DNA of 64,000 nucleotides. Origin: a virus (Duplodnaviria; Caudoviricetes). The stretch is from the IMG/VR virus record IMGVR_UViG_3300012979_000034, positions 18,405 through 82,404 of that record. The stretch is one strand, 5' to 3'. Positions 1 through 19,050 of the stretch are shown piece after piece; position 1 is the first letter of the stretch; each line of letters begins with the position of its first letter. The notes beneath the pieces are model-generated. The model worked only from the letters and a program-made list of their open reading frames with translations. It did no database searches and was not told the DNA's origin. Made by a program: the position numbers and the translations under genes.

Positions 1-2
1 AA

Positions 3-716: not shown

Positions 717-718
717 AA

Positions 719-1429
719 CTAATATTGTCTAAAATCTAACACTTTATTGATAGACTCTTCTGTTATCTTAGATTCATCATATTCTTTACGATTTACTAAA
801 AGATCATCTGGGTCATAATTCTGATATACACTATATATAACGCTATCAAATGGTAAACTTATCTCCATTTTACCATTTTCTGGAAATAAGAGTAGTTTTA
901 CTTTTTTCGTAGTATGATTAACCTCTAATATATTAGCATCTATACCATCATAGGGATAACCTTTCAAAACTAAGTAATCACCAACTCTCAGATTAATCAA
1001 ATTATCAACAGAAAATCTTTTATTTTCTCTAGACAACCTCTGGAATCTTCTTACTTCTTCCTTTGTTGCAGTTGCTACAATTGAAAAATCATCAAAGATA
1101 TCCATATTATCAATCCTTAGCTTTTTCTTCTTAGGATGTAAAGACTCTGGAGACTTTACCCATCCTCTAATACCGTCTATATCCCTTTTCATTTTATTCA
1201 TAAAATCCCTATTAAAAGCTAATTCAGTAGGGATTTTAATAAAACCATAGTTAAACAACAACGGTACTTTCTTATATACATCTTTACTCCTTGAAGTTTT
1301 AGTGAGAATCTTTACGATAGGTATAATAGCTTTACATCTAGTATAACCCTTTTCAATAAGTTCTGATTTTATATTTTCATAAAACTTATTTTCTAAGTAA
1401 CATATACAATATACATAAGGTGTTTTCAT
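719..1429 (-). CDS. NusG/RfaH/UpxY-family transcription elongation (antitermination) factor
   Basis: NGN-like motif VPLLFNYGFIKI and C-terminal KOW motif VGDYLVLKGYPYDGIDANILEV. Confidence 0.75.
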   Translation of the reverse strand: MKTPYVYCICYLENKFYENIKSELIEKGYTRCKAIIPIVKILTKTSRSKDVYKKVPLLFNYGFIKIPTELAFNRDFMNKMKRDIDGIRGWVKSPESLHPKKKKLRIDNMDIFDDFSIVATATKEEVRRFQRLSRENKRFSVDNLINLRVGDYLVLKGYPYDGIDANILEVNHTTKKVKLLLFPENGKMEISLPFDSVIYSVYQNYDPDDLLVNRKEYDESKITEESINKVLDFRQY

Positions 1430-1944
1430 TGTCTTAGAAGTTTCTTAGCTTCTTTATGTACTAATTTATAACTTACTACTGATTTTACTTTACTAGCCAT
1501 GAATATAAAAACATTATGATTACCAAACTTTAAAGTCATGTGAGTTTGGTTTAAAAGAGGTTTAAAGGCTAATAACATATCAGACTGAATAACAAAGAAA
1601 AACTCTTTCTTAGGCATAGAGTTATACCTCATACATAAAATAGGTATCTTATCAGTTCTTTTAGCATCTCTACAAGCTTGTTCCCAAAATTTAACTATAT
1701 CACAACCTTTATTCTCAAGAAGAACATGCTCAAAGCGTATGTCTTTATAGGATTTACATTCTATTGACAGTTTACATCTATGAGCATGTCTAGTATCAGT
1801 GCAAGTAATATCTGCACCAGCATCTTTATTTCCCCACCATGATCCTGAACCAGCTCTATTTCTTTCAAATTTATAACCAGTCCATTCAGTTAACCAAGCA
1901 GCTACTGCCCGTTCCCAACGATTACCTTTATTCTTAGAATTCAT
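1426..1944 (-). CDS. Holliday junction resolvase, PD-(D/E)XK (Hjc-like)
   Basis: SKNKGNRWER, GADIT and SIECKSY motifs. Confidence 0.75.
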   Translation of the reverse strand: MNSKNKGNRWERAVAAWLTEWTGYKFERNRAGSGSWWGNKDAGADITCTDTRHAHRCKLSIECKSYKDIRFEHVLLENKGCDIVKFWEQACRDAKRTDKIPILCMRYNSMPKKEFFFVIQSDMLLAFKPLLNQTHMTLKFGNHNVFIFMASKVKSVVSYKLVHKEAKKLLRQ

Positions 1945-1991
1945 GTCTAGTACTTTTAATCTATTGTCTTGTATTTTTAATTTACAATAGA

Positions 1992-3704
1992 TTATAGTAC
2001 CCTATAGTAACTTAACCCATCCACTTTGTCTACTTGAAGTATTTTAGTATTTGGTAATGGTAAAGATGTATGGTGTGTGATTAAGAATAAGGCTTTGTTT
2101 TCGAAAATATACCTTATTAAGGATATAACGATTTCTATATTATCTTGACTTAAGGATTCGAATACTTCATCTAAGAAAGCTATATTAATACCTCTAGAAG
2201 CTGTTAAAGCCTCATTCATAGCAAATGCCATAGCTAAGTTAACTAACTGTTTTTCTCCACCTGATAACTCATCATATTCTATTATATACTTACCTCTTTC
2301 AATTAAAGTACAAAATTCTTTTCTAGTTGATGATAAATCTATCTCGAAGGCTATCCTAAAACCAAGTATATTAGAATAGCTTTCCAATATCTTATTCAAT
2401 ATATCTAATGAGGAATCAAATAGATATGCTTTTATACCGTTATTTCCTAATGGATCATCAATTACCCATTGATAGTTCTTTAATTCTAATTCCTTATTAT
2501 GATAATCCTCATCAACTTTACGTAACCTAGATCTAATCTGAGCTATATTTTCTTTATACTTTGGAGATAGGACCTTTAATTTTTCTTCTTTTAGCTTTAA
2601 AAGATCGCTATCAATAGAGGCTATATCATCTGATAAATCATTTGCCTGCTTTACATAATCTTGATAGTTACGATTTATCTCCTCTAACCTTGATAAACTA
2701 TCACTAGTTTTAGTGATTTGCTCATGTATATCTCTAGACCTAATAAAAGAATCCTTTAAGGTTTTCAAAGACTTTTTTGCTTTTACATATTGTTTATTTT
2801 TTAACATCATGTATACTTCGTCGATAAACGACTCTATTGGTATATTACCAATGCTCTTTGCTTTATTATAAGCCTCTTTTAGTTTGATTAAGCTATCCTT
2901 CTTCCTTTTAAGTTTCAATTCAAACTGTATCTCAAAATCATCACTTAAATGTTTTTTTACCTCTATTAGCCGTTTAGTAAATTTACTCCTTGTTTCTTTT
3001 AACTCTTTTCTTTCCTGTCTAATTTGCTCTGAAAAGGAAGCTTCTCTTTCTTTTAACTCTTTATAGGTAGCGATGTTTTGCTCCAGAGATTCTTTTAAAA
3101 CAGCAGATTCTCTTTCTACTTCATTAATCTTACTAATTAAGTTATTTTTATCCTCTAAAGCAATACCTTTAGCTATGTTTAGGTAATTTAAATCAAAAAC
3201 CTCTTCAAAAAGCTTCTTCTTATCACTATTTGGTTCCTGTATTAGCCTCTTTATACCCTGACCAAACATGATAGAATTCATAAAAAGGTTATAAGATAAA
3301 CCTATCACTTGATTTATCTTATCTTGTATAGCTAACTTACCTTTAATGTCTAAGATATCAGCATCTTTCATCAGAAGTACTCTGTCATTACCCTTAGCAC
3401 CATCATCTATAGTATCTTTATATTTTTGACAACGTACTACTTTATATGTATGATTATCAACTGAAAAATATACTTCTACTAATACACCTTTATAATCTTT
3501 TGGTTGTATATCCTTCCAGGTAACTACATCAGAAACCCCTTTTAGACTTTTTCCATACAATCCCCATACTAAAGCAGAAAATATACTGGTTTTACCTTTA
3601 CCATTAGAGGCTTTAATTAAGATTATACCCTTATTATTCAAAGGTAACTCTAAATCTGATATTGAACAAAAACCTTTGGCGTGTAATTTTAAAAGTGTTA
3701 ACAT
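1992..3704 (-). CDS. sbcC: SbcC/Rad50/gp46-like recombination ATPase
   Basis: Walker A NGKGKTS, long coiled coil, signature LSGGEKQ, Walker B FLDEVFE and H-loop ITH. Confidence 0.9.
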   Translation of the reverse strand: MLTLLKLHAKGFCSISDLELPLNNKGIILIKASNGKGKTSIFSALVWGLYGKSLKGVSDVVTWKDIQPKDYKGVLVEVYFSVDNHTYKVVRCQKYKDTIDDGAKGNDRVLLMKDADILDIKGKLAIQDKINQVIGLSYNLFMNSIMFGQGIKRLIQEPNSDKKKLFEEVFDLNYLNIAKGIALEDKNNLISKINEVERESAVLKESLEQNIATYKELKEREASFSEQIRQERKELKETRSKFTKRLIEVKKHLSDDFEIQFELKLKRKKDSLIKLKEAYNKAKSIGNIPIESFIDEVYMMLKNKQYVKAKKSLKTLKDSFIRSRDIHEQITKTSDSLSRLEEINRNYQDYVKQANDLSDDIASIDSDLLKLKEEKLKVLSPKYKENIAQIRSRLRKVDEDYHNKELELKNYQWVIDDPLGNNGIKAYLFDSSLDILNKILESYSNILGFRIAFEIDLSSTRKEFCTLIERGKYIIEYDELSGGEKQLVNLAMAFAMNEALTASRGINIAFLDEVFESLSQDNIEIVISLIRYIFENKALFLITHHTSLPLPNTKILQVDKVDGLSYYRVL

Positions 3705-4690
3705 GTTTCAGCTTTATTTAGTAAACTTATTAATAAGTTTTTCTTGTCTTTATCTTTCATACCAATTTTCTTCATATAGCGTCTTGCTAGAGTTCTTTTA
3801 GAAAGTTGTTTAGTAATATTATGTTCATTTGTATTACTAATACTAGCTTTCTTAGGTAATACCGTATAATAATTACCATCCTCTATTATATCACTCTCAT
3901 TTTCTACATCAATGAATTTAGGGAAATCCTTTAAGGGTAAAAATTTCATATCTAGGTTATCATATAATAACCATACCCCTAATTCACAATCTCTATCTGT
4001 TCTCCTTTGTTGTAATGGAGCACCTATCATATAAACCTTTTTAGATAACCTTTGGGGTTTATGTATATGACCACATAATACTAAATCGAACCTATTTAAA
4101 ATATTCAAATTTAGGTTTTCAACTGAATCTATAACCCTACCATCAGTATCCTTAGCTCCCGGGTAATCAGTATGTAACATTAAAATATGTTTATAATCAG
4201 GGTCTAATTCCAATTTAGACAAATATTCATTTAAACCTATATTATGGTCTATGTAAGGTACTCCATGAATAACTACTGAAGATTCTGTTAACTTAAAACT
4301 TACATTATCTATATTATATACCCATCTATACCTATTTGATAAGTATGTAATTAAGCTATATTTAGGGTTATTTATTGTATTTACCTCTTTTAATTCATGA
4401 TTACCAGATATAGCTAATAATTCAAAGCTATTACCATCATAAAAATTAGCTTCATCGTCATACTTAGCAAATTCATTATCCATAAGATGAAGTAATTCAA
4501 TACTTATACCATCAGGCTTATGAAAGAAATCACCACAAAACAGAGAAATACAATGATGTTTATTACATAAATCTCTAACGAACGAAAGGACCCTAAAATG
4601 GTTCAAGGTCCTTTCGTTATTCTTATTAAACTTAGCCCAGATGTTTAAATGTAAATCAGAAAAAACAACAGCTAATACTTTTTTACTCAT
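3698..4690 (-). CDS. sbcD: SbcD/Mre11/gp47-like metallophosphoesterase nuclease
   Basis: SDLH, GDFFH, GNHE and GHIH motifs; adjacent to sbcC. Confidence 0.9.
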   Translation of the reverse strand: MSKKVLAVVFSDLHLNIWAKFNKNNERTLNHFRVLSFVRDLCNKHHCISLFCGDFFHKPDGISIELLHLMDNEFAKYDDEANFYDGNSFELLAISGNHELKEVNTINNPKYSLITYLSNRYRWVYNIDNVSFKLTESSVVIHGVPYIDHNIGLNEYLSKLELDPDYKHILMLHTDYPGAKDTDGRVIDSVENLNLNILNRFDLVLCGHIHKPQRLSKKVYMIGAPLQQRRTDRDCELGVWLLYDNLDMKFLPLKDFPKFIDVENESDIIEDGNYYTVLPKKASISNTNEHNITKQLSKRTLARRYMKKIGMKDKDKKNLLISLLNKAETC

Positions 4691-5385
4691 AGTTTTAATT
4701 GATACTTTAGAATCAACTCCCTTTCATTTAAACCAAGAGAAGAAATGGTTAATACATCAGTATGACCATATATATTCTCTATAAAACCGTATTCTACACT
4801 GTCTGTTAATTCAACAAATCTATATAAACCCTTTGGAATACGTTCATAACTACCAACACGTTGATAACCCATAATACCAAGAGCAACCTTCATAATACCT
4901 GATATCTCAGCTTGAAAATAGTTGTTAGTTATCCTTTTATGATTATCTTCAGTAAGCCATTGATCTATATAACCTGGTTTAAAATCAAACATTACTAACA
5001 AATCACATTGTTGAACCAGTATCATAGAGCATAATCTAGAGAATTGGTCTAATTCACATGAAGGTTGTTTACCTGCTTGCTTATAAATAAAATAGGTCAA
5101 ACTATCAAGGTAACTACGGTCAGAAACAAATATTGGATGTTCTCTGAACAATTTACGTCTTAGATCCAATATCTGATAATCCTCTAAATATTGGGTTTTA
5201 GAATCCCTATCTAACATATCTCTGTGAGAAAGCTCTTTTGTAGAGGGTATTAAATCTGATACAGAACCAGATATAAATTCATAACCCAATGCCTGATACT
5301 CATCGGCTAACCATTTAGCTATGGTAGTTTTACCAATACCAGATGGACCGGCCATCATAATTCTTTGATACTTAAGGTTTTTCAT
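4687..5385 (-). CDS. P-loop nucleotide-kinase-like protein (AAA_28/dNMP kinase-like)
   Basis: GPSGIGKTT Walker A and FVSDRSYLD motif typical of the NMP-kinase fold. Confidence 0.65.
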   Translation of the reverse strand: MKNLKYQRIMMAGPSGIGKTTIAKWLADEYQALGYEFISGSVSDLIPSTKELSHRDMLDRDSKTQYLEDYQILDLRRKLFREHPIFVSDRSYLDSLTYFIYKQAGKQPSCELDQFSRLCSMILVQQCDLLVMFDFKPGYIDQWLTEDNHKRITNNYFQAEISGIMKVALGIMGYQRVGSYERIPKGLYRFVELTDSVEYGFIENIYGHTDVLTISSLGLNERELILKYQLKL

Positions 5386-6296
5386 TTTAATAATTCTTTA
5401 AAAGGTTTCATAAATTCATTAGTCATAAAAGATGAAAATGAGTATGAGATACAGATATTCTTGAAACGTTTTTCCTGTATTACCTTTTTCTTATATGAAT
5501 GTATGATATCATTAACTCTAGAATTTGGGTGATTCTTAACAAACCATTTCAAATCTATTAGTTGTTGATTTACTTTCCAAGCTCTTTCTATCTTTTTATA
5601 ATCTTTTAAATCCTTATTTTCTAAAGCTTTTTCTATAGAACCGTACTCATCAAGGAATTTTCTAACCTTTACAGGACCATAACCTCTTACACCAGGGATA
5701 TCATCAGAATTATCCCCAACTAGTGATAAATAATCAACAGTTTCATAAGATTCATATCCAAATAACTCTCTACAGTTATCAACCCTTACCATAGATTCTT
5801 TTCTTGGATTAAATATCTTAAGCTTATCGCTTAACAACTGATTAAAGTCTTTATCACTTGAAATTAAGATATATTTATAATCCTTATTATCTTTTGTAGT
5901 TAAATAAAGGTATGCTAGAAAATCATCTCCTTCATAATTAGATATTTTATATTTATCAAAGATATAAGTAATTCTTAGCATCCTTAAAATTGCCATTATT
6001 TGCTTTTTCTGAGCTTGTAAAGACTCATAATCTACTGATATATTTTTTCGATGAATCTTATAGGTTGGTAAAAGCTTTTCTCGGTATTTAGAATGGCCAT
6101 TATCAAAGGATATTACTACTTTATACGGTTCAAACCTAGTTAAATACATGTGTAAGGATTTAAAAAACCCAAATATAGCTCCAGAAGGTTTACCATCAGT
6201 AGAATGTAGATTCTCAAATTTATGGAAAGACTGGTGAAGTATATTTTCTCCATCTATTAATAGGATTAGCTTAGATTTAGATGATGCTTTCATCAT
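5382..6296 (-). CDS. 5'-3' exonuclease / flap endonuclease (T4 RNase H-like)
   Basis: LLIDGEN, YKIHRK, YEGDD, SSDKDFNQL and GDNSDDIPGVRGYGP motifs. Confidence 0.9.
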   Translation of the reverse strand: MMKASSKSKLILLIDGENILHQSFHKFENLHSTDGKPSGAIFGFFKSLHMYLTRFEPYKVVISFDNGHSKYREKLLPTYKIHRKNISVDYESLQAQKKQIMAILRMLRITYIFDKYKISNYEGDDFLAYLYLTTKDNKDYKYILISSDKDFNQLLSDKLKIFNPRKESMVRVDNCRELFGYESYETVDYLSLVGDNSDDIPGVRGYGPVKVRKFLDEYGSIEKALENKDLKDYKKIERAWKVNQQLIDLKWFVKNHPNSRVNDIIHSYKKKVIQEKRFKNICISYSFSSFMTNEFMKPFKELLK

Positions 6297-6681
6297 ATTC
6301 TGAATACATTAGAAGACTTATATTATGAAAAGCTTTATTATAATCCTTGTTTAAGATAGAGAGTACTATATCTTGGAATATTGGGAAGGATTTTGGCTCT
6401 CTGAATGAGTTTTTAAACTGAAGAACATATTTTGATAAAAGTGTATCTTCTAGGTATATTACTCCATTATATGTATTTGGGTATTTATCCATAGTAATAG
6501 CCATTTCACATACATGGGCTGATTTCTTTAAATCTGATAAACCATTTTTTCTAAAGAATCTTGAAACATATTTAAAAGCCTCACCCTGAAACCAGTTTAA
6601 TTTATACTGGGATATAATGGTTACTGGTTCTATATCTAAATCTTCATAATGTGAACCACCAACTTCTCTTAATTTATTCAT
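6277..6681 (-). CDS. DUF3310 (SaV-like) protein
   Basis: VGGSHY...GEAFKYVSR...KNGLSDLKK. Likely start is ATG 6681 (or 6687), overlapping the recA stop; the track start is 6723. Confidence 0.75.
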   Translation of the reverse strand: MNKLREVGGSHYEDLDIEPVTIISQYKLNWFQGEAFKYVSRFFRKNGLSDLKKSAHVCEMAITMDKYPNTYNGVIYLEDTLLSKYVLQFKNSFREPKSFPIFQDIVLSILNKDYNKAFHNISLLMYSEYDESII

Positions 6682-7825
6682 TATCATCGTCTTCTTCCTC
6701 CTCTGAATTACTAAATGATTCATACTCTACTCCATCTACTGGGAAAAAATTCTCTTTTAAATTATCCAGTTTTTTACGAGTATTACCTATGGTATTTATA
6801 CTAGCTTTACGTAAAAGCTTTCTTCTGAGATCTTCATCTTCTTCTAGAAGTTTCTGAAATTTCTCTTCACCACGACATAGCTGTTTATCTCCAAGTTTAT
6901 ATACACCACCAGAAGATTTTACTATAATTTCATTTTCTACAAAAACATCCTCTAAACCATAATATCTATCAAAACCAACCTCATGGAAAGTAGGATTAAA
7001 ATATACAGGACATTTTGAAATACTTGGTCTTGGTGGAGCTACCTTATTTTTAATTAATCTAACAGTTACTAATTTACCTGCCCTACGTTCTTTACCCTTA
7101 TACTTAACAGTTATTGATTTACCTGAATAAAAAGCAGCTCTTATAGCAGCATAGAATTTCAAAGCAGCTCCTCCAGTAGTTGTAGTATTATCTTTACCAA
7201 AACCAACATTCAAAGCTGTTCTTAATTGGTTAATATATATCTGAGTAATACCTAGTCTATAGAATAATTCTGAGCGTATACGAAAATATTTATATAAAGC
7301 CTTAGCTCTACCACCCATCTCAGCTTTACCCTCTACCATTTTAGCATCTATATTATCTGCACAATCCATAGCTGCTATAGAATCAACTACCAGTAATATG
7401 GGTTCATTATGAGTTAATTGGGATCTCAAGTATATAGCTAAATCTGCTACTATATCAGCAACATATTCTATTCTAGTATCATTTACTACAGTTACATTAC
7501 TGGGATCAACACCATTAGTTTCAGCCCAAGAATTCATCCAAGATTGTTCTGCATCAACCCATATAACTTTACCACCAAGCTGTTGACAAGCATAAGCAAA
7601 ATTATAAGCTATTAAAGATTTACCTGATGACTCTTCTCCAGCTACTTCTAAGATTTTACCAAATGGGATACCTCCACCAAAAGTATAATTAAGCATAAAA
7701 AATGTAGAGGGTAACCAAAGCCCAGATTCTTTTGTATCTGAAGCTAATTTTACCATATTACCATACTTTTTAAGTATCTCATTTTTGGTTGGTACTTTTA
7801 TACCGATTTTACCGTTCTTTGCCAT
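6674..7825 (-). CDS. recA: RecA/UvsX recombinase
   Basis: GEESSGKS, WVDAEQ, VVDSIAAM, YINQLR, TTGGAALKFYA and KNKVAPP motifs; acidic tail. Confidence 0.95.
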   Translation of the reverse strand: MAKNGKIGIKVPTKNEILKKYGNMVKLASDTKESGLWLPSTFFMLNYTFGGGIPFGKILEVAGEESSGKSLIAYNFAYACQQLGGKVIWVDAEQSWMNSWAETNGVDPSNVTVVNDTRIEYVADIVADLAIYLRSQLTHNEPILLVVDSIAAMDCADNIDAKMVEGKAEMGGRAKALYKYFRIRSELFYRLGITQIYINQLRTALNVGFGKDNTTTTGGAALKFYAAIRAAFYSGKSITVKYKGKERRAGKLVTVRLIKNKVAPPRPSISKCPVYFNPTFHEVGFDRYYGLEDVFVENEIIVKSSGGVYKLGDKQLCRGEEKFQKLLEEDEDLRRKLLRKASINTIGNTRKKLDNLKENFFPVDGVEYESFSNSEEEEDDDNE

Positions 7826-7845
7826 ACTTTTTTTAAATGAAGTTA

Positions 7846-7888
7846 AAAACTAAAGAAGGTGGTAACCCATAAGGAATACCACCTCCTC
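7846..7888 (-). terminator. Rho-independent terminator between ssb and recA
   Basis: Minus strand AGGAGGTGGTA...TACCACCTTCT stem followed by TTAGTTTT. Confidence 0.7.
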
Positions 7889-7924
7889 ATCAACACATAA
7901 AACTTACAAACAAAAGACAAACTA

Positions 7925-8707
7925 CTAAATATCAGATTTGTATTTTTTCTTCTTTTTCTTTACTGGTTCATCATCACTAGATTTCTTCTTTTTCTTTACT
8001 GGTTCATCAGTATCTTCATCAGCAGGAGTTTCATTGAGGAAAGTATTTAACATATACTGTAATTCATCATAATCCTTGATTTGACTGCGAACTATAGATT
8101 CTAGATCAACATTACCCCTGTATTTTGAATCTAATGAGGATGGTTTACAAGCTCTTGCTGAATATGTAGTATCTAACTTACCAGAACCTGAACGTATAAT
8201 CTTAATATCATAACCATGATCTGGGTCTGTCATATCTCCAGCCTCATCCTCATCTAAATATAAATCTACGATATCTTGGTATACTGACCTTGGTATTAAA
8301 ATACCCTTATCTTTACCGTCATAATCAAAGCTACTGCCTTTATCATCAGTATATACCAGACCACCAATTATATACCTACGACGAGGAACCATTTTCTTAG
8401 CTAATTCCTTATCATCGTCATCTTTAGAGTTCTTTAACTCATTGTACTTTTCCATAAATGGGCAAGGCTCATCAAAAGTAGCTGGAGAAATAATACCACC
8501 TACATCAGGTATATAGAATTGAACAACCTCCATTCCCAATTCCTGATCATCACCTGGGGATTTCATTCTAACTCTAGTAGTACCTTCTTTTGGATATACC
8601 AATGAGGACCCTGAACCCTTTTCAGTTAACTTTTTCTTCCTTGCTAACATCTTCTCTCTGGTAGTCATACCATCAGAGGAAATTTTCTTTTCTTTCTTTA
8701 CTTTCAT
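7925..8707 (-). CDS. Single-stranded DNA-binding protein (gp32-like)
   Basis: SPATFDEPCPFME and GYDIKIIRSGSGKLDTTYS motifs, acidic/basic tail, position next to recA. Confidence 0.65.
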   Translation of the reverse strand: MKVKKEKKISSDGMTTREKMLARKKKLTEKGSGSSLVYPKEGTTRVRMKSPGDDQELGMEVVQFYIPDVGGIISPATFDEPCPFMEKYNELKNSKDDDDKELAKKMVPRRRYIIGGLVYTDDKGSSFDYDGKDKGILIPRSVYQDIVDLYLDEDEAGDMTDPDHGYDIKIIRSGSGKLDTTYSARACKPSSLDSKYRGNVDLESIVRSQIKDYDELQYMLNTFLNETPADEDTDEPVKKKKKSSDDEPVKKKKKKYKSDI

Positions 8708-9102
8708 AACTTATTACACTCTGAATAAATAATCTCATTAACGGATAGTACTGTTAACTTATTAGTTTTTAATAAATCATTTAATCCTGATGGTAAATCA
8801 TATTGTAATTCCAATTCTTTACCAGCATACAAACCATAAGTAATAATCATACCAATTTTAGTACAATCTCTAAAACACCTATTTAGTTCATCTATATAAC
8901 CAGATTGAACTACAACGCCCTTTCTTGGTAAATCATCTTTAGCAGTACCAGGAATAATAATACCTGTTGAAGTAGTAGTCTCATTATTTGGAGATAATAC
9001 TACTACCCTATTTTCTGGACATATACCTGTACTACTAAGGGCTTCATTTAACTGATTAGCCACTTCGTAAGATACGAAATTCATTTTTACATTCATATTC
9101 AA
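8704..9102 (-). CDS. groES: GroES-like co-chaperonin
   Basis: PENRVVV...TTTSTGIIIPGTAK...KGVVVQSG mobile-loop pattern. Confidence 0.75.
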   Translation of the reverse strand: MNMNVKMNFVSYEVANQLNEALSSTGICPENRVVVLSPNNETTTSTGIIIPGTAKDDLPRKGVVVQSGYIDELNRCFRDCTKIGMIITYGLYAGKELELQYDLPSGLNDLLKTNKLTVLSVNEIIYSECNKL

Positions 9103-9133
9103 TTAGAATTTTATAGTATATATTAATAGTTCT

Positions 9134-9553
9134 CTATTGTTGTTTCCTGAGAGTGGCACTCAGAGTTCTAAGGATGTTCTCCCTATTCTCATAAACTCTG
9201 CATATTGAAATAAACATATTAGCTTTAGCTGAAGCTTTTAAATAACGTTTACACAGTGAACAATATTTATTATTAGAATTAGCTAAATGGGATACCTGTT
9301 CATTAGAATACCTCTCATTACTTGATTTATAATAAGTCCATACTTTGCTATAAGCTTCTTCTTTTTCACGTTCAAGAGCATCACGTTTTTTAATATAATT
9401 ATCTCTCAGTTTACAAAGTATATAATAACTAGACGGACTATCTTTCAGCTGAGAATTCAATAAATTTTCATTTATAGATAATTCTTTTGCTAAGTCTATT
9501 GTTAATACCTTACCATCTAGTTTAACCTTAATAACCTTAATCTCGGCTTTCAT
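9134..9553 (-). CDS. UvsY-like recombination mediator (helical)
   Basis: Size, helical coiled-coil character and position in the recA/ssb cluster; no decisive motif. Confidence 0.45.
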   Translation of the reverse strand: MKAEIKVIKVKLDGKVLTIDLAKELSINENLLNSQLKDSPSSYYILCKLRDNYIKKRDALEREKEEAYSKVWTYYKSSNERYSNEQVSHLANSNNKYCSLCKRYLKASAKANMFISICRVYENRENILRTLSATLRKQQ

Positions 9554-10148
9554 ATTCTTGTAATAGTTTTATACCCTGTTTAATCTTATCATCCCAGGTA
9601 ATTTTATAATCCTTACCTAATTCTAAAATACTACTGACTACCTTCTTAGCTTTAGTAGATACAATAGTTACAACACCTTCACCGTCTTCAATACGTTTCT
9701 TTACTGAATCCCAGGCCATATGATTCTTTAGGTCATGATTTGGAAACTCTATATAGTGTTTAAAACCATGTAACATCTTCCATAGTGTATAAGCCCGGAT
9801 ATCAGATATATCATCAGTACCAGAAATAGAGATAAACTCTTTCAACAGTGAATAATACTGGAACATAGTAGTATCATGGGAGTATATACAACTTTTCTCA
9901 GTAGTTAATATAGACTTTTTCTGTAACTCATCTACTAAAAACTGAAATCTAGTTGAAAGCCTTATCAATTCACTAAGAATACGCTTATTTTCATGTTCTA
10001 ACTCAGTCCTAGTAGCTTTTAAGTTACTTTCCATATCCATAAATGATTGTTGTAAACAAGCTGCAAGTACATAAGTAACATTCAACTGAATATTTGTAAT
10101 TGATAGTTTAGGGTTAGACTCTAACTCTTTTTTTGTAATCGGTTCCAT
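9537..10148 (-). CDS. Hypothetical protein
   Basis: 203-aa ORF in a tight operon. Confidence 0.6.
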   Translation of the reverse strand: MEPITKKELESNPKLSITNIQLNVTYVLAACLQQSFMDMESNLKATRTELEHENKRILSELIRLSTRFQFLVDELQKKSILTTEKSCIYSHDTTMFQYYSLLKEFISISGTDDISDIRAYTLWKMLHGFKHYIEFPNHDLKNHMAWDSVKKRIEDGEGVVTIVSTKAKKVVSSILELGKDYKITWDDKIKQGIKLLQEYESRD

Positions 10149-10149
10149 A

Positions 10150-10368
10150 TTATAAAAAACTTTCAGTAACTAACCTATCTGAGGTGGTTGTTTTCACAGA
10201 ATTATTATGAAGTATTAGATTACCACATTTAGGGCAACTTACATAAATAGAATTACTACCATCTCTTAAATTTACATTAACGCAATCCTCATATTGATAT
10301 TCAAATTCTGTATCACATACCTGACATTTAGCAATGAATACCGATGGACCTTTTAAAATCTTCTTCAT
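10150..10368 (-). CDS. Small zinc-ribbon protein
   Basis: CQVC...CPKC. Confidence 0.6.
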   Translation of the reverse strand: MKKILKGPSVFIAKCQVCDTEFEYQYEDCVNVNLRDGSNSIYVSCPKCGNLILHNNSVKTTTSDRLVTESFL

Positions 10369-12619
10369 ACTCTTTCATCTCTTTAGAAAAATACTTAGGA
10401 TAATCTTTAATACTTATATGTTTATATTTCTTAGCCAGTTCCATATATTCATCAACATTGAAATCAGGCTTTAACATATTATTATAATCATACAATGGTA
10501 TAAATGGTAATTCTTCTGCCATAGTTCTACCTATTTCATAATCCATATCCATTGTAACATCATCTATCTGAAAACCAAAAAATTTCTTAGTTCTTGGGTT
10601 TCTATAGATATTCCACATCGTATATATGGTCCATACATTAATAAATTCAGGCTTACTGTTAAAATAGTTAGCATCATGTACTAAGCAAACTGAATCCATT
10701 TTTGGTAACTTACCTTGCCTCATCATATAATATATTAATATTGAGCCAAATAAACACATATCTGATGCAGCTGATTGACAAGGGAAATTTAAACCCAATC
10801 TTATAGCATAAGCTACCTCATCACTATTGTTTGAATATATTTGTGGTAATCTTCTTTTTCTACCAAACAAAGATTTAAGATAACCGTTTTTCCTTAAATA
10901 CTTTTCCTGTTTTTCCTTAAATACCTTTAATTTAGGATGCTCTTCAAAGTACTCATCCATTTGTTTTTGAGCTTCTTCTTTAGAAACTATTAAACCTGCT
11001 TTTGGATCTGATAATTTTACAGCTAGTAAAGCAGCACCAATACCATAAATCAAACCAAACGCTAATTGTTTAGCTTGTTTTCTTCTAGTTTTCCATAGTT
11101 TAAAATCAGGATGTTTTTCATCTTCATAGATCTTAAGAGTTTCATTATAATCTACTCCATATTTTTTACAAGCAATAGCTAAATGAGGATCTTGACCTTC
11201 TGCAAAAGCTTTCAGATATGTTTCATCTCCAGATAGGTGAGCCATTATTCTCAATTCAGCTTGGGAAAAATCTGAAGCAAAATATAAAGTTCCTGGTTTA
11301 GCTACTAATTGATTTTTTATATTAGGGTCAACTGAAGTCTTTGGTATCTGTTGTATATTTGGTTCTTGTGAACTTAATCTGCCAGATGTAGTACCATGTA
11401 TTAATAATCTACCATGTAAACAATTATCATCCTGTACTTTTTCATTCCAACCTAAAATATAAGTTTTATACATTTTTTCCAAACCTCTTAATTCCATAAG
11501 CTTATCTAAAAATATAGCTTTCGGATTATCAGGTTTCTTTACTGTTAATCTTAATTCAACCAAAGTATCCTCAGACGTTGAGGGTTTACCTGATTCAGTT
11601 TTATTTATGGGTTCAAAACCTAAACCATGTTCTCCATACATTAGTAGAGGTAAATCATTATTACTATTTAGGTTGATAGGAGCAATTAATGCTTGCTCAT
11701 TTTTAGTAATATATATTCCGGCACGGATATTAGCAATTTTATTCTGCCTACTAGTGATTTTTCTCTTATCTGCTGGATTATTTATATCTAAAGAATCTAA
11801 TTCTTCTTGTATTTTACTTATATATGCCTCTATCCTAGATTGGTTTAAATACTTTTGAAACTTTTTTACTTTTGGTAGATTCATTACCGTATTACGAGCA
11901 TCATCTATCTTCGGTTTATAAGTATTGAGTAGTTCCTCATTAAAACCCCTATTTAAATATAAACCAGATTTCTCTACTGAAGTTAATACCCTTGAAGCAG
12001 TCATTATCAGGTTTCTATAAGTATCATACAAACCTAGTGTAATTAACTTATTTTCAAAGAAAATACTTAATCTAAAGGTATAATCAGTATCTTGACAGCC
12101 ATATTTACATAGAGGTTCTAATGGTTTTTCATCCCATGGTATTTTATCAAAGGCATCTTGCTTTTCATAATTACCATGTTCCGGTAAATACCTTTTGACC
12201 ATATCTTTTAGTCCATTCGGTTTCTCCTCATTTAGTAAATACTTAGCTAACATACCATCTATAAGTACACCTCTATAGAATATACCATACTTCTCCATTA
12301 TCTGATTATCAAACTTAGCATTCCAGGCTATCTTAGTAATATTCCTATTACAAATAACCTGTTCACCAAAATACTTAAGTTCTTTTAACCAATCCCAACC
12401 TGGTTCAGTATAATCTTTAGTTTCTGGGTGATCTAAGGGTATAGAACAACCCATACCAGGTTGAAATGTTACTGATAAGATTGTTGGTTTAAAATCCCTA
12501 TTATAAATTGGTTTAGCATTAGTTTCAAAATCATATGAAGCATATCCAGTTATTTTACAGGCTCTTACAAGTCGTTTCAGTTCTGAATGAGAACGAATAA
12601 TGTGATATTTTGTCTCCAT
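10328..12619 (-). CDS. polA: DNA polymerase family A with 3'-5' exonuclease
   Basis: Exo DFET; TTSGRLSSQEPNIQQIP; motif A SDFSQAELR; motif B RKQAKQLAFGLIYG; motif C VHDA. Confidence 0.95.
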   Translation of the reverse strand: METKYHIIRSHSELKRLVRACKITGYASYDFETNAKPIYNRDFKPTILSVTFQPGMGCSIPLDHPETKDYTEPGWDWLKELKYFGEQVICNRNITKIAWNAKFDNQIMEKYGIFYRGVLIDGMLAKYLLNEEKPNGLKDMVKRYLPEHGNYEKQDAFDKIPWDEKPLEPLCKYGCQDTDYTFRLSIFFENKLITLGLYDTYRNLIMTASRVLTSVEKSGLYLNRGFNEELLNTYKPKIDDARNTVMNLPKVKKFQKYLNQSRIEAYISKIQEELDSLDINNPADKRKITSRQNKIANIRAGIYITKNEQALIAPINLNSNNDLPLLMYGEHGLGFEPINKTESGKPSTSEDTLVELRLTVKKPDNPKAIFLDKLMELRGLEKMYKTYILGWNEKVQDDNCLHGRLLIHGTTSGRLSSQEPNIQQIPKTSVDPNIKNQLVAKPGTLYFASDFSQAELRIMAHLSGDETYLKAFAEGQDPHLAIACKKYGVDYNETLKIYEDEKHPDFKLWKTRRKQAKQLAFGLIYGIGAALLAVKLSDPKAGLIVSKEEAQKQMDEYFEEHPKLKVFKEKQEKYLRKNGYLKSLFGRKRRLPQIYSNNSDEVAYAIRLGLNFPCQSAASDMCLFGSILIYYMMRQGKLPKMDSVCLVHDANYFNSKPEFINVWTIYTMWNIYRNPRTKKFFGFQIDDVTMDMDYEIGRTMAEELPFIPLYDYNNMLKPDFNVDEYMELAKKYKHISIKDYPKYFSKEMKEYEEDFKRSIGIHC

Positions 12620-12642
12620 TAGTTTTATATGTTTGTTATGCT

Positions 12643-12672
12643 ATAATAGGGAAGATTTCTCCTCCCTATTAT
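12643..12672 (-). terminator. GAAA-tetraloop hairpin, probable terminator/attenuator before polA
   Basis: Minus strand ATAATAGGGAGGA-GAAA-TCTTCCCTATTAT: 13-bp stem with one G-U; weak U tract. Confidence 0.55.
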
Positions 12673-12686
12673 TAAATTGTTTACCA

Positions 12687-13463
12687 TTAAACTAAGTCGT
12701 CAATGTTAGAATTTAGATAATGCCAATCTTTTTTATAAGCATGTAGAGAATCAATTGTATGATATAAATAGCCAGGTTTTATATTAATTTCCCTAGCAAT
12801 ATATTCCATAAGTCTCCAAGCTAAATATACATCATCTCCAAAGTGCATACAAAAATCTGAGCTCCTTTGGTGATATACTATGTTCAATTGTTTCTCACCT
12901 CTAGCATTCCATCTGATTAGAAAATCATAATACATTGAACAAGGTATACGATGTTCTCCAGCATAATAATCACTATCAAAATCATGAGGACCAATACCAT
13001 ATATACTTAAAACAGCCTTACGAGTACCTGGGTCAGTCTTTAGCAATTGTATAATAGCTTCCAACTTAGTCATCCTAGTACCATTAAATAATACTGGTTG
13101 ATTAATACGTTCACAGTATGTATAATCAAAATGACGGTCATTGGTACCTACCAAAAATTGTTCCCACATATCTTCACGTAACTTCCAAGCTTCGCCAGGA
13201 TTATTGTATGTTTCATCTGGATCAATTCTCTCCAGGAATTCAGCATCAGCCCATTCTTTAGCCTTTGTATATACAAATAGGTAATCTACATTTTTAAGTG
13301 AAGTTAAACAATACTGTTGACATATTATTTCTTTTGTAATAAAGTCATCAATACCTTCTATCACCTTATTCTGGTAAGTCTTTGGTTTTACTACTTGACC
13401 ATAGCTATTGAGTTCTCTGCCCATCTCAGACATTAAATCTCTACAATCTGAATAAATTCTCAT
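12687..13463 (-). CDS. ThyA-fold enzyme, probable dCMP hydroxymethyl/methyltransferase
   Basis: EFLER Glu, TRKAV, catalytic RIPC, QRSSDFCMHFGDD (Asp at the E. coli TS Asn177 position), DSLHAY. Confidence 0.75.
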   Translation of the reverse strand: MRIYSDCRDLMSEMGRELNSYGQVVKPKTYQNKVIEGIDDFITKEIICQQYCLTSLKNVDYLFVYTKAKEWADAEFLERIDPDETYNNPGEAWKLREDMWEQFLVGTNDRHFDYTYCERINQPVLFNGTRMTKLEAIIQLLKTDPGTRKAVLSIYGIGPHDFDSDYYAGEHRIPCSMYYDFLIRWNARGEKQLNIVYHQRSSDFCMHFGDDVYLAWRLMEYIAREINIKPGYLYHTIDSLHAYKKDWHYLNSNIDDLV

Positions 13464-13464
13464 G

Positions 13465-14379
13465 TTACTCTTCTTTATGCTTTAAACTATTTTTATGTTT
13501 TTTCTTATACAACTTACGCTGTGAAAAAGAGATACAATCCTCTGGATATTCTATATCTTCATATTCTAATAGTAAATCCCTAGCATATAAGGGTTTATAA
13601 GTATATAGATCAGGTCTAAGTACTTTAAAACTCCTAAAGAATACCTTGAAAGATGAGAATTGTTTTTCTGTACCATTTTGAAACTTATTGAATACTTCCC
13701 ATACTTTATCAGTAAATGGGTTTTGTACACCCTTTAATACTTTCTTGAGAGGTTTATAAGTGTGATACATCATCAGGGTTTCTATATTACCATACATTTG
13801 AGTAGCAAATACATTTACCTGAATAGATTGTTCTGGTCCATATACATATTCAGACATCCTTTGAATTAATAAGAAATCAAATATTAACCTCTTAGTTATT
13901 TCCGATGCCCTCATTATCATAGTAACAACAGGAGTATCTTCCTGGAACCTTTTTGAGAAAGTAGCAGCTATTAAACACTGCTTACCATTATCGTGGTGGT
14001 TATTGAAAGTATAAGTTATGTTGTAATTTTGATTATACTTGTTCTTTAATACTCTAAGCTTAGAACGTAGTAAATCCAGTTTGTTAAAATCAATATAATT
14101 GTTTAACAGGGAAGTCCATTTAGCTTCTGTATAATTAAACATTCTACCATAATCAAAATCAGGATCAACCCAAGCCTTCCTTATCTTTATAAATACATTG
14201 TATGATACAGCTACTCCACTATTAGCTGTAGCTCCAGCTTTAAATAATATTGGGTCTATTCTCAGAAAGGATTCATTTAACTTTTCCCAAGCTTCTTGTG
14301 AAGTTGCGAACTCTAAAGCATGTATATTCTCTTCTGTATTAGTTTCTAGACCCTTTAAAGGTTTATTCCATCCAGACAT
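13465..14379 (-). CDS. Second, divergent ThyA-fold protein
   Basis: GKQCL Cys and MRASEITKRLIFD motif (Asp at the specificity position); the C-terminal HxY motif is degenerate. Confidence 0.6.
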   Translation of the reverse strand: MSGWNKPLKGLETNTEENIHALEFATSQEAWEKLNESFLRIDPILFKAGATANSGVAVSYNVFIKIRKAWVDPDFDYGRMFNYTEAKWTSLLNNYIDFNKLDLLRSKLRVLKNKYNQNYNITYTFNNHHDNGKQCLIAATFSKRFQEDTPVVTMIMRASEITKRLIFDFLLIQRMSEYVYGPEQSIQVNVFATQMYGNIETLMMYHTYKPLKKVLKGVQNPFTDKVWEVFNKFQNGTEKQFSSFKVFFRSFKVLRPDLYTYKPLYARDLLLEYEDIEYPEDCISFSQRKLYKKKHKNSLKHKEE

Positions 14380-15258
14380 TTAATAACCAGTTTTTTGTCT
14401 CCATAAGTTGAGACGTTGTTTTTTAAACATTAATACATATATACTCTCTTGATCAAAACCATTAAGACCCAAGTAACCAAGATATAATAGGAAAGCTTTT
14501 ACTACAGCTTCCTGGTAATCAAGTTCTTTTGACATTACCTGTGTTTGCTTCCATGGACGATTCTTAAGCAAATTCCTAGCACAATTCAATTGATAGATTA
14601 CCTGCCACATTAAATATATACCATTGTTAATACGGGAAGGTGATAATGAATGAAACCCGGGAGCATATTGCTTGAATTTATCAAAATCGTTCTGAGTTTT
14701 ATTGAACTTACCAGTAAAGATATCTGAACTTACTAACGGGAAACTAAGATGAAGCAAACTATCATATACATCAAAACCACAGTCATTTTGAAGCTTTATA
14801 CCAAATGACATCAAATCATTGGTTGAATTTATATCTATACCACCATTAGAATCTGCATAATTAAAAATATCTTCTGGCAATATATTAGAGTATGTTAGAA
14901 GAGCAAAGAAGAATCCAAAAGCATCTGCTTGTTCTTCATTTGCATTTTGAATATGATTTAATACTTGATTATATTCTTTGTTATTGAGCTTATATATGTT
15001 ATAACCAATAGGATTTAAAATCTCATTCAATAGTAAAAGGGACTCATGACCCTCGGTTAACTCTTCTATTATTCTACCTATAAAATCCTTTAGTATAACC
15101 TGATTCTTGGCAGTATTTATATCAAAAGGGTAAGCTGGTAGATTTTCTATAATACGATAACCCTCTAGCTGTTCTATACCCAAATCAAACATCTTTGACA
15201 GATACTCTTTTGGGTCAGATACCTCTAGAGGGTTTTCTGTAATATTTCTAATATCCAT
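14380..15258 (-). CDS. All-alpha dNTP pyrophosphatase (dimeric dUTPase / T4 gp56 dCTPase-like)
   Basis: EELTE, EEQAD, KNRPWK and C-terminal KKQRLNLWRQKTGY. Confidence 0.7.
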   Translation of the reverse strand: MDIRNITENPLEVSDPKEYLSKMFDLGIEQLEGYRIIENLPAYPFDINTAKNQVILKDFIGRIIEELTEGHESLLLLNEILNPIGYNIYKLNNKEYNQVLNHIQNANEEQADAFGFFFALLTYSNILPEDIFNYADSNGGIDINSTNDLMSFGIKLQNDCGFDVYDSLLHLSFPLVSSDIFTGKFNKTQNDFDKFKQYAPGFHSLSPSRINNGIYLMWQVIYQLNCARNLLKNRPWKQTQVMSKELDYQEAVVKAFLLYLGYLGLNGFDQESIYVLMFKKQRLNLWRQKTGY

Positions 15259-15821
15259 TAGTCACCAGAACCAAGTCCATTACTACCTCTGGTACCCCAA
15301 GTAGTAGCCAGATCTTCATATTCTTCTACTGATATCTCTTCCAGTGGTGTAATATAAATAGGTACATGAATAAACTGTAAAATAGAACCAACTTCAACAA
15401 CCTGAGTAGTACTACTAGTATTACAAATACCCAAATGAATTTCACCGGTATAAGGAGAATCAACAATCTCTGCAGTATATACTAAACCCTTTTTATAGGA
15501 TTTACCAGATTTATTTGCAGCCATTAGCATTGAATTTTCAGGCTCTATTAAAACTCTGATACCTGATGGAATCAATACACGTGAATGAGGTCCCAAGATT
15601 ATACTGGTTATATATCCGGTACTGTGATTTATTACTGTTCTAACTATACCAACTCCAGTTATATCTGGGCTGATCACAATATCTTCAGCTTGAGCATTAG
15701 CTGTACGGATATTTTCAATAGTTAAATTACTTGGAATCTTAAAATCCAAACCTGCATCTCCATGATTTGCATAAGAAGGTACTTCAACTTCCCTTACCTT
15801 ACAAAAGCGAATACGATTCAT
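15258..15821 (-). CDS. dut: Trimeric dUTPase
   Basis: AGLDF, KSGKS, IVDSPYTGEI and RGSNGLGS motifs. Confidence 0.85.
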   Translation of the reverse strand: MNRIRFCKVREVEVPSYANHGDAGLDFKIPSNLTIENIRTANAQAEDIVISPDITGVGIVRTVINHSTGYITSIILGPHSRVLIPSGIRVLIEPENSMLMAANKSGKSYKKGLVYTAEIVDSPYTGEIHLGICNTSSTTQVVEVGSILQFIHVPIYITPLEEISVEEYEDLATTWGTRGSNGLGSGD

Positions 15822-16066
15822 ATCTGTTGTAAAATTTTATAATAAGTAATACGTTTTTTGTACTTAAAAGTTATACCTACATTTTCTTCTATAGATTTTT
15901 TATTCAACTCATCAATCATCTCTTTTACATCTGATTCACCTCTCATGAATAGAGATGATAACCTATCTTCAGCTCTTACATAATAACCTGTATTATTCAG
16001 ATACCTTTTAAAAAGGCTCCAAATATATGGAATAAATATCCTAACTCTTTCCTCTTTCTTCATCAT
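15818..16066 (-). CDS. Hypothetical protein
   Basis: 82-aa ORF with ATGA-type overlaps on both sides. Confidence 0.55.
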   Translation of the reverse strand: MMKKEERVRIFIPYIWSLFKRYLNNTGYYVRAEDRLSSLFMRGESDVKEMIDELNKKSIEENVGITFKYKKRITYYKILQQI

Positions 16067-16440
16067 TTTAATTCTCTATAAATCTTTCTCAGATCCTTTT
16101 GAGGTACTTCAAACTTTTCAGAAGCTTGGTTTATTATATCCTTTCTGTTAACACTTTTACGTTTTAAATTTCTCATAAACTTCTTAATAGCCTGAACATC
16201 CTCTAAGATATCTAGATCCTTGAAATGTTTTTTCTCATCTAACTCTTTTCTAGTAATGTTTAAATCCTGAGCCATTTTGAAAGCACATAGTTCAGAATCT
16301 CCACATATTTTACACTCTTTAGTACTTAAATCATACCCTTTTCCAAAACAGGGATCTCCATTAGAACCCAATTGAGTTATATCTATCGGTTCTAAAGGGT
16401 CCTGCTTCTCAAGAATAGGTAGTTGTTGTTTCTTAGCCAT
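16063..16440 (-). CDS. Hypothetical protein with 4-Cys motif
   Basis: PC...ECKIC...LC pattern; basic C-terminus. Confidence 0.6.
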   Translation of the reverse strand: MAKKQQLPILEKQDPLEPIDITQLGSNGDPCFGKGYDLSTKECKICGDSELCAFKMAQDLNITRKELDEKKHFKDLDILEDVQAIKKFMRNLKRKSVNRKDIINQASEKFEVPQKDLRKIYRELK

Positions 16441-16520
16441 CTTTAATAAAAATTTTGTTATTATATAATAATAGTTTTAAACTTTAGTAGAGAGTAGGTG
16501 TATAGATACAGTTTGACCGG

Positions 16521-16898
16521 TTACCATATCTTGACAGTAAGAAGACCCTCCTTATGAGTATTAATATCATCCAACTCTATCCAAGTATATTGAATATCAG
16601 AATAGTTTAAATAAAATGGTATCTTTAATGAAGATGGTTTCTCTACAGCCTCTAATAATTTGTTCCTTATAGCATTTAATGCCATATCCAAAGCTAACCA
16701 AGAAGCATCACTTAAATAAGAACCCATTATTTGATACTGTCTGTACTTAGTAGCAAAATTAAATCCATATTGATACTTAACAGATGAATAACAAGGGCTA
16801 ATGTATTGTATATCATTTATATTGATGTAATACATAGTTAAATCCTTATTTAAATCCCTACTATCTACTATATTATCAAAAGTCAATCCTGTTTCCAT
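16521..16898 (-). CDS. Hypothetical protein
   Basis: 125-aa ORF with an AT-rich start context. Confidence 0.55.
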   Translation of the reverse strand: METGLTFDNIVDSRDLNKDLTMYYININDIQYISPCYSSVKYQYGFNFATKYRQYQIMGSYLSDASWLALDMALNAIRNKLLEAVEKPSSLKIPFYLNYSDIQYTWIELDDINTHKEGLLTVKIW

Positions 16899-17013
16899 GA
16901 TATTTATGTTTTAATCCTTAATTTTGTATTAGTTCTCACTTTAATTTCCTCCGGAAAATAAAGTAATACTTATTAGTCTACCCCATAATCTATATGGTAG
17001 TAGGTTTAAAAGT

Positions 17014-17259
17014 CTAGTCTAATATCTTATCAATTATTAGGGATAATGGTAATGCTAATATAAGAATAGGCCAAATTGGTATTATTATATATGAGATACC
17101 TTCAATAAGTGTATCCTTATATCTTTTAACCTTATTACTAACTAGATATTTATAAATTAAAGTTCCTATAGTTATATATAATATACAACCAAGGTAAACT
17201 GCTAGGATTATCAATAAAGTTTCCATATCAATATCTTGTTTTAAGCCTTGTATTTCCAT
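17014..17259 (-). CDS. Small two-TM membrane protein
   Basis: Two hydrophobic stretches and a WPI motif. Confidence 0.55.
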   Translation of the reverse strand: MEIQGLKQDIDMETLLIILAVYLGCILYITIGTLIYKYLVSNKVKRYKDTLIEGISYIIIPIWPILILALPLSLIIDKILD

Positions 17260-17429
17260 TCAAGTTCATCTATCCTTTCTTCCAGTTCTGATATCTTGGA
17301 ACGGAGTTGCTCAACCTCGTCAATCAGTTCATTTACCTTATTAGTCAACTGGGTGTTTGTCGGTGGGTATTCACCATAGGTGTTACCATACTGGTCTGTT
17401 TTAGGTGTAAAATTAAGTTTCTCTGCCAT
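17241..17429 (-). CDS. Small coiled-coil protein
   Basis: Heptad pattern VNELIDEVEQLRSKISELEERIDEL. Confidence 0.55.
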   Translation of the reverse strand: MAEKLNFTPKTDQYGNTYGEYPPTNTQLTNKVNELIDEVEQLRSKISELEERIDELEWKYKA

Positions 17430-17431
17430 AT

Positions 17432-17605
17432 TTATTCCTCCTTTTCAATTAGTTCAATCAATTCTTTATATGCTTCGCATCGATATTTTGCCTCACAAGA
17501 ATTTCTACCATTCCACTCATTATATAATTGCTTTATTTTTTCTATTAACTCTTCTCTTAACCCTTCCTCGATTGCAATAAACGGGTGTTTGTTCTTCTTT
17601 TCCAT
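17432..17605 (-). CDS. Small hypothetical protein (57 aa), not in the ORF track
   Basis: Manual translation MEKKNKHPFIAIEEGLREEL...LIEKEE*. Overlaps the helicase 3' end; stop lies 2 nt before the next ATG. Confidence 0.5.
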   Translation of the reverse strand: MEKKNKHPFIAIEEGLREELIEKIKQLYNEWNGRNSCEAKYRCEAYKELIELIEKEE

Positions 17606-19050
17606 AGCTTTTCTAATTGAATAACTTTAAGTTTTTCTTTTTGATAATAGATTCTCCTATGATTCCCGTGTCTTTGTAAATATGGACCTTGGTATTGAAT
17701 ATCATCAAGGTATACCCTATTTTTAGAAGCATGTGTTCTAACTAATCGGCCTAAAAATTGTATTGACTTTTCCTGGCTATCCATACTAGCTGCATTAATC
17801 ATATACCTCAATAATGGGAAGTTCTTACCTCTAGCTACTATGGTAGTAGATATCAATAAATCTACCTTACCTTCCCTGAAGTCAGAGATTATCCTTTTTC
17901 GTTCCTTATCTTTAGTATTAACATGTACCCTAGCAATGGTTAATTTATATTTTGCTAGTTTCTCGTTCAAATAAGAATAAAGATTTTCACAATGATTTAT
18001 ATATTTGCATACTACGAGAGCAGGAATCCTGCCATATTTTAAATTATATTCTAATCTATCAGATACAATTTTCATAGAAGTTTTATTATTTGTAATCGTA
18101 TCATCATAGATATCCTTATAATCAACCTTATCTGATTCCCAATTACCTAGCCACCTTTTACTTGGTACCATTTTAACAATAACCTTAGTTGAATAACCCA
18201 TTTTGATAGATTCTGCTAATCTGAATTCTGCTATAGTAGATCCAAAGAAAGCTTCCAAATTTAAGTTCTTAAGTCTATCTCTAATCAACTTACTCATATA
18301 AATGGTTCCAGACAAACCTATACGAACCCTAGTATTATATAAATGAGTTAACACCTGTTGATAAGACTTATTACCTGCTAAATCTGCCTCATCTACTAAT
18401 ACCATGTCTATACTGGTTAATTCTTTTTGATACTGCCTTATATTCCGGGATATGGATTGAACCATACCTATTGAGAAGTTAGACCAATTTTTAACATTAC
18501 CACCTTGTACAAAGGTTATATCCTCATTAGGTAGATACTGTTTAAACTCCTCTCTAGATTGATTTAACCAATCTGAGTCATTTGTTATCAATAAAGTTTT
18601 AAGTTTTTTCTTGAAAGAGTAATATAAAGCTGACATTATCAATGACTTACCAGCATTAACAGTATAGTTAATAACCCCTATGTGAAAATTAGCATTACCA
18701 ACCTTATTAAATAATACTGAAGATACTGCTTTTATTTGTTCTGGTCTTAATTTGTAATTACCTATACTCTTTATCTGAGTATTAACCTCTGGTACTGGTT
18801 TACGAAAATCTTCTATAAAAACATCTAAACCATATTCTTTACACTTATTGTATATTTTTGGTAGTAGCCCTATTCTAAATACACCAGACTTATTTATGAA
18901 ATGAATCATACCATCCCAATTAGGTATTCTCTTTTTTAAATAAAAGGACTGGGGATGCCTTACACTAAATTCATTATATAACTTGTTAGCATACTTAGCT
19001 GGTATGTTTAATTCACACTGATTACAGTTTTGTATTATAATACTTGCCAT
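17557..19050 (-). CDS. SF2 DEAD-like helicase (UvsW-like)
   Basis: TVNAGKS, LVDEAD, GLSGT, STTIVARGKN and QFLGRLVR motifs. Confidence 0.85.
   Translation of the reverse strand: MASIIIQNCNQCELNIPAKYANKLYNEFSVRHPQSFYLKKRIPNWDGMIHFINKSGVFRIGLLPKIYNKCKEYGLDVFIEDFRKPVPEVNTQIKSIGNYKLRPEQIKAVSSVLFNKVGNANFHIGVINYTVNAGKSLIMSALYYSFKKKLKTLLITNDSDWLNQSREEFKQYLPNEDITFVQGGNVKNWSNFSIGMVQSISRNIRQYQKELTSIDMVLVDEADLAGNKSYQQVLTHLYNTRVRIGLSGTIYMSKLIRDRLKNLNLEAFFGSTIAEFRLAESIKMGYSTKVIVKMVPSKRWLGNWESDKVDYKDIYDDTITNNKTSMKIVSDRLEYNLKYGRIPALVVCKYINHCENLYSYLNEKLAKYKLTIARVHVNTKDKERKRIISDFREGKVDLLISTTIVARGKNFPLLRYMINAASMDSQEKSIQFLGRLVRTHASKNRVYLDDIQYQGPYLQRHGNHRRIYYQKEKLKVIQLEKLWKRRTNTRLLQSRKG

Follow-up and report, generated by a model that had tools for sequence, protein, structure and literature searches.

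The gene run around X

The window that we have analysed is a stretch of 64,000 nucleotides, which covers the greater part of a complete gut-phage genome (82.4 kb, terminal repeats, GC content of about 32%). At positions 13465-14379 of the window, on the minus strand, we confirm a real protein gene with relatives in many phages; its product, which we refer to as "X", is an orphan protein of the thymidylate synthase (TS) fold (304 aa, pI 9.2), with a putative nucleophile (Cys135), a putative phosphate ligand (Arg157), a putative cytosine reader (Asp168) and a basic C-terminal tail. X is part of a tight run of minus-strand genes, in the following order: a trimeric-type dUTPase, the first of a four-gene run (15258-15821; Pfam PF00692, 1.3e-9; phrog_135); an all-alpha dNTP pyrophosphatase-like protein of the dUTPase_2/MazG type, whose gene abuts the start codon of X (14380-15258, 292 aa); X itself; a dCMP-type ThyA homologue, which we refer to as "NB" (12687-13463, 258 aa, pI 5.3; Pfam PF00303, 4.5e-14); and a family A DNA polymerase, located immediately downstream of this cassette and assigned by a database match (10328-12619). 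The original prediction had placed the end of X one nucleotide before the start of NB, and this is borne out, since a single base separates the stop codon of X from the ATG of NB (TAA-C-ATG); the KQCL and RASE motifs, the Asp residue 11 residues past the Arg and the basic tail that it described are likewise all present.

With respect to the pyrophosphatase-like protein, only the last ~70 residues match known families (phrog_12184, 4e-16; Pfam dUTPase_2, 0.01, below the cut-off), and its 220 N-terminal residues are without a known-family match; dCTP as its substrate is something that we only infer. A P-loop AAA_28 protein, encoded at 4687-5385 on the minus strand, may be the (d)NMP kinase that acts on the modified nucleotide; an AAA_28-like gene also follows the polymerase gene in the metagenomic locus L091, and in the cassettes of cultured phages a gene labelled "thymidylate kinase" is located immediately upstream of the pyrophosphatase. 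A search of the source phage genome for dCMP deaminase (PF00383) found none. Elsewhere in the replication module, a Cpn10/GroES-like protein (8704-9102, minus strand; Pfam 1.1e-5) is encoded next to a gp32-like single-stranded DNA-binding protein (7925-8707) and RecA (6674-7825). Outside the window, positions 1-18500 of the genome contain ten larger open reading frames without a Pfam match at E 0.001.

On the plus strand, the open reading frame at 62460-63368 encodes ThyX, the flavin-dependent thymidylate synthase (PF02511, 4e-26, at positions 62526-63344 of the window, i.e. 80930-81748 of the genome); three "thymidylate synthase-type" genes, those of ThyX, NB and X, are thus found in one genome. 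ThyX is the phage's own route to dTMP, and since it is encoded both here and in the metagenomic lineage L087, neither of the two TS-fold genes is needed for dTMP.

The family and the fold of X

A word-indexed search has returned 374 close relatives of X, while the family comprises 141 clusters at 50% identity according to an exhaustive phmmer search; a locus search with a second alignment (A2) returned only relatives of ~80% identity. The conservation counts that are given below are based on an alignment (A1) of 79 diverse members that are 19-58% identical to X. The AlphaFold2 model of X, built from this 79-member alignment, has a pLDDT of 92.6, and all of its significant Foldseek matches in the PDB are TS-superfamily chains, including the dCMP hydroxymethylase gp42 of phage T4 (PDB ID:1b5d, 6a9a; E 8e-5 to 5e-4), which has the same fold. 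The profile-profile alignment of the X family with the NB family reaches an E-value of 9e-6, and the NB-family HMM directly matches two X members (2e-5 and 5.5e-5). The ThyA fold originally predicted for X is upheld by these comparisons, which confirm the TS type of alpha/beta fold, built around a large central sheet.

Searches of a simpler kind do not reveal this relationship. X has no Pfam match, and PF00303 is absent from X and from five distant members even at permissive E-value limits; BLASTP finds no significant match between X and NB; and a PDB sequence search gives chance matches only for X alone, and sub-threshold matches to the phage enzyme AfhB for the X profile. The PHROGs assignments of X and its distant members, phrog_34294 and phrog_13667, are both of unknown function, so that the X family is missing from the curated family libraries that were searched. 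None of the literature searched describes the family; the only hint is that two distant members are labelled "pyrimidine hmase synthase" in GenBank. By sequence X is thus outside PF00303, with no match above the gathering score, and it shares with the TS superfamily the fold, the catalytic Cys on the strand that follows the active-site loop, and the phosphate-binding Arg with a base-reading residue 11 positions further on. X is best read as belonging to a clade of the thymidylate synthase/dCMP hydroxymethylase fold that is confined to phages and uncharacterised.

About half of the X members have C-terminal tails, often basic; in the longer members (322-483 aa) we have found only variable, basic or low-complexity tails and no Pfam domain. 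Three of them (P0174, P0181 and P0185) combine the X core with long, basic, low-complexity tails that contain GRPPKD-type, AT-hook-like GRP motifs. An 1811-aa protein (P0247) was considered as an X fusion and rejected as a cadherin-repeat false positive. The basic character extends beyond the tails: the median pI is 9.37, with 77 of the 79 members above 8, and the core alone exceeds 8 in 78 of the 79; NB proteins range from 5.3 to 8.3, and the contrast between a basic X and an acidic NB recurs in most pairs.

The cytosine-type neighbour NB

NB is a genuine member of PF00303, and its best PDB sequence match is AfhB (3.8e-7). Across all lineages, NB retains, in the numbering of E. coli ThyA, R126, R143, C146, R166, D169, H173, D177 and H207; its R148, the equivalent of R126, is invariant. 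From these residues, NB reads as a cytosine-type, gp42-like enzyme. One of the two readings in the original prediction involves a second step on hydroxymethyl-dCMP. NB, however, has an Arg at position 143, where the known hydroxymethylases have Asp or Glu, and thus its product cannot be called hydroxymethyl-dCMP. In the NB of the source phage, the sequence at residue 210, just before the specificity Asp, is G-D-D, compared with N-D in nine relatives; the extra acidic residue adjoins D177.

The active site of X

The equivalences between X and E. coli ThyA that are used here derive from alignments (global hhalign probability of only 63%) and from the spacing of the Arg and Asp residues, not from a residue-level superposition. 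On this basis, C135 of X corresponds to C146, R157 to R166, E160 to D169, R164 to G173, D168 to N177, L136 to H147, W88 to W80 and, probably, Y95 to Y94. The corresponding ThyA residues C146, H147, D169, G173, N177, W80 and Y94, together with L143, are among those located within 6 Å of the C5 atom of dUMP (Lee et al., PMC13326640).

All 79 members share K87, Y95, C135, R157 and D168, and five more residues (W88, E160, R164, L136 and R249) are nearly invariant. C135 aligns with the Cys of the PC motif of NB, and the branch that includes the Gordonia phage and Muddy retains it too; the spacing of 11 residues between R157 and D168 is identical to that between R166 and N177 of the E. coli enzyme. 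Several positions around the nucleophile are occupied differently: Glu160 is found in 76 of the 79 members, Arg164 occurs at the position of G173 in 75, and a Gly (Gly132) that aligns at L143 is located three residues before the Cys in 65. His207 has no counterpart in X, where either Gln194 or Met203 takes its place depending on the alignment. The Arg126/Arg127 pair is also absent, as is a counterpart of R21, and a Lys-rich loop (residues 114-117) lies in place of the pair, for which it may substitute; because both the pair and the R21 counterpart are missing, the binding of a nucleotide monophosphate in an X homodimer is not assured. Many conserved Lys and Arg residues occur beyond the four canonical ones.

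In enzymes of this fold, position 177 reports on the substrate (Asp for dCMP), and positions 143 and 169 report on the product (an acidic residue at 143 for hydroxymethyl, Asn at 169 for 5-hydroxy; PMC13326640); Asp at position 177 also marks experimentally modified contigs (PMC8670742). By these rules Asp168 is a putative cytosine-type reader, and X fits neither of the two product rules. The characterised systems nearest to X are the 5hodCMP synthases, MilA, T4 gp42 and the ThyA enzymes. X lacks the classical folate-dependent residue set (Asn177, Asp169, His147, His207/Tyr209 and Arg126/Arg127), and differs from the E. coli and L. casei ThyA enzymes in having no PF00303 match, in the replacements N177D, D169E, G173R and H147L, and in the loss of H207 and of the Arg pair. 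As regards the T4-type hydroxymethylases, X has the Asp (Asp168) but a Gly (Gly132) at position 143. The flavin-dependent dCMP 5-hydroxylases, or 5hodCMP synthases (AfhB of E. coli phage HY126, PDB ID:9iqu and 9iqc; RB69 gp48; DLP3 gp80), combine Asn169 with Asp177, whereas X, about 10% identical to this group, has Glu160 in place of the diagnostic D169N and an Arg at position 173; X is also set apart by the missing Arg pair, by a helical C-terminal domain of ~90 residues and by its basic charge. The CMP 5-hydroxymethylase MilA (PDB ID:5b6e and 5jnh), ~11% identical to X, is a folate-dependent enzyme of a bacterial antibiotic pathway with Asp at position 143.

Co-occurrence of X, NB and the pyrophosphatase

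The expected co-occurrence of X with a ThyA-like partner is very strong. Of 80 close IMG/VR loci, 79 have an NB gene after X in the same orientation, the remaining locus being truncated, and the two genes are also adjacent in divergent metagenomic lineages (L001, L002, L087, L088, L091/L092 and L090). The X-family HMM further identifies members in six groups of cultured phages: Clostridium perfringens phage CPD4 (gp74, 6e-41), Pseudomonas phage PMBT14 (1.7e-16), Serratia phage Opt-155 (gp50, 9e-16), Brevundimonas phage Polewnik (2e-10), Mycobacterium phage Muddy (gp47, 1e-8) and Gordonia phage SweatNTears (gp50, 2.4e-7; hhalign probability 91.5%). C. perfringens phage CP3 and Serratia phage Serbin are further cultured carriers. 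The order of the cassette in these six groups is (kinase), pyrophosphatase, X, NB, (dCMP deaminase), PolA. By tblastn, the three branches of the X family match 13, 18 and 85 records of phages, respectively. The number of sequenced phages with the cassette is well above one hundred, including the therapeutic mycobacteriophage Muddy, and the carriers are phages of Clostridia, Actinobacteria and Proteobacteria as well as uncultured gut phages, the source phage among them.

A pyrophosphatase-type gene is located directly 5' of X in most of the lineages where the upstream gene is visible, and this linkage is at least as tight as that of X to NB. The two genes are separated in one phage genome of 63 kb that has terminal repeats (CheckV completeness 65%): there, NB is found downstream of X at a distance of 9.2 kb. 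Some lineages have two X genes: they are arranged in tandem and are 28.5% identical in L002, and two are also present in L088, with the Cys, the Arg, the acidic residue and the Asp being kept in all four copies. No fusion of X with NB occurs among the 141 phmmer clusters or in a search of longer proteins. Directly 3' of an X copy in L088, which also has a dCMP deaminase, and in L089, we have observed a UDG-PolA fusion polymerase (at 10269-12623 and 1659-4085, respectively), a type that has been linked to phages with modified thymidine (PMC13697223).

The gene context follows the same logic as the gp56/gp42/gp1 pathway of T4, i.e. a pyrophosphatase, a TS-fold enzyme, a kinase and a polymerase; T4, in contrast, is without a counterpart of X, and the gp42-like role in the present cassette is already filled by NB, which makes X an additional TS-fold protein.

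The proposed role of X and its alternatives

X is best read as an active enzyme of a cytosine-nucleotide pathway that works with the gp42-like NB, possibly in a complex, and it probably contributes to making a modified cytosine. In the explanation that we favour, at about even odds, X is catalytically competent and most likely carries out a separate step in the pre-replicative synthesis of a modified dCMP, by a reaction unlike that of NB. The pyrophosphatase would supply dCMP; Cys135 would attack C6 of a cytosine deoxynucleotide, with Asp168 and Arg157 holding this substrate in place; and X would then perform a reaction at C5 (or C4) that differs from that of NB, because the side of the pocket that faces C5 and the cofactor appears rebuilt, with Glu160 for D169, Arg164 at G173, Leu136 for H147 and Gly132 at L143. 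Glu160, Lys163 and Arg164 would form the rebuilt cofactor side, and the step may involve a cosubstrate that is not a folate or is bound in another way, or else a reworking of the NB product. A more specific version, which we put forward tentatively and consider unlikely as it stands, is that X either reactivates the 5-substituted dCMP made by NB with a new nucleophile or uses a non-folate cofactor, giving a so far undescribed modification of cytosine that is made on the nucleotide; in the reactivation route, Cys135 would add to C6, the substituent would leave, and the resulting exocyclic methylene would be trapped by the new nucleophile, probably an anionic one held by Lys163/Arg164.

Besides the missing Arg pair and R21 counterpart, two observations count against the proposed modified-dCMP step: we know of no modified base reported in Muddy, a well-studied carrier, and the uniformly basic charge of X is unusual for a small-molecule enzyme. 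The basic charge would suit pairing with an acidic partner in a heterodimer and contact with nucleic acid equally.

TS-fold enzymes are obligate dimers, in which arginines are donated in trans. X and NB could accordingly form an obligate heterodimer through the TS beta-sheet interface, with X being mainly structural or regulatory, NB lending the R126-type Arg, and only one kind of site turning over. The absence of the Arg pair from X alongside the invariant R148 of NB, the adjacency of the two genes in nearly all lineages, with a 1-nt spacer here, and the pairing of a basic with an acidic protein all favour such a complex, which we nevertheless hold to be unlikely: a passive subunit has no need of the invariant catalytic triad of X, two X copies accompany one NB in some phages, the genes are well separated in the 63-kb genome, and fusions are missing. 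The retention of the Cys, Arg, acidic and Asp residues in the duplicated copies fits a chemistry of their own better than spare structural subunits and, together with the invariance of the Cys, Arg and Asp across the family and the separation of the two genes, makes it less likely that X is a passive or degenerate partner. The earlier interpretation, which offered either an obligate heterodimer with one active site or a second step that transfers a non-folate group at the nucleotide level, is partly supported, the TS fold and the strong co-occurrence being borne out.

It is quite doubtful that nucleic acid is the substrate or the anchor of X, either in a post-replicative modification of cytosine or by docking to DNA or the replisome in order to channel nucleotides. 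The basic cores, the often basic tails, with AT-hook-like motifs in three members, the many additional conserved Lys and Arg residues and the constant location of the gene in the replication module beside PolA agree with this; on the other hand, the closest structures all bind mononucleotides, we know of no TS-fold enzyme that acts on a polymer, and the close association with genes for a dNTP pyrophosphatase and a dNMP kinase speaks for chemistry at the nucleotide level. That X is merely a diverged ordinary thymidylate synthase or dUMP enzyme is highly improbable despite the shared fold and Cys nucleophile, as its specificity position is invariantly Asp rather than Asn, other residues line the surroundings of C5 and the folate site, and ThyX is already encoded by the source phage and by L087; the ThyX gene and the invariant Asp led us to reject X as the phage's thymidylate synthase.

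Implications

Nearly all of the pre-replicative pyrimidine modifications known from phages (5hmC, 5hmU and 5hoC) begin with a TS-fold enzyme. X represents a second TS-fold clade, with a fixed place in a conserved cassette alongside a ThyA homologue of the cytosine type. If X is catalytic, the cassette would produce an unknown base modification, or a known one in an unknown way; since several of its carriers are in culture, this question is directly testable. If true, the proposed role would matter for the evasion of restriction, for bias in sequencing and for how therapeutic phages, Muddy among them, behave.
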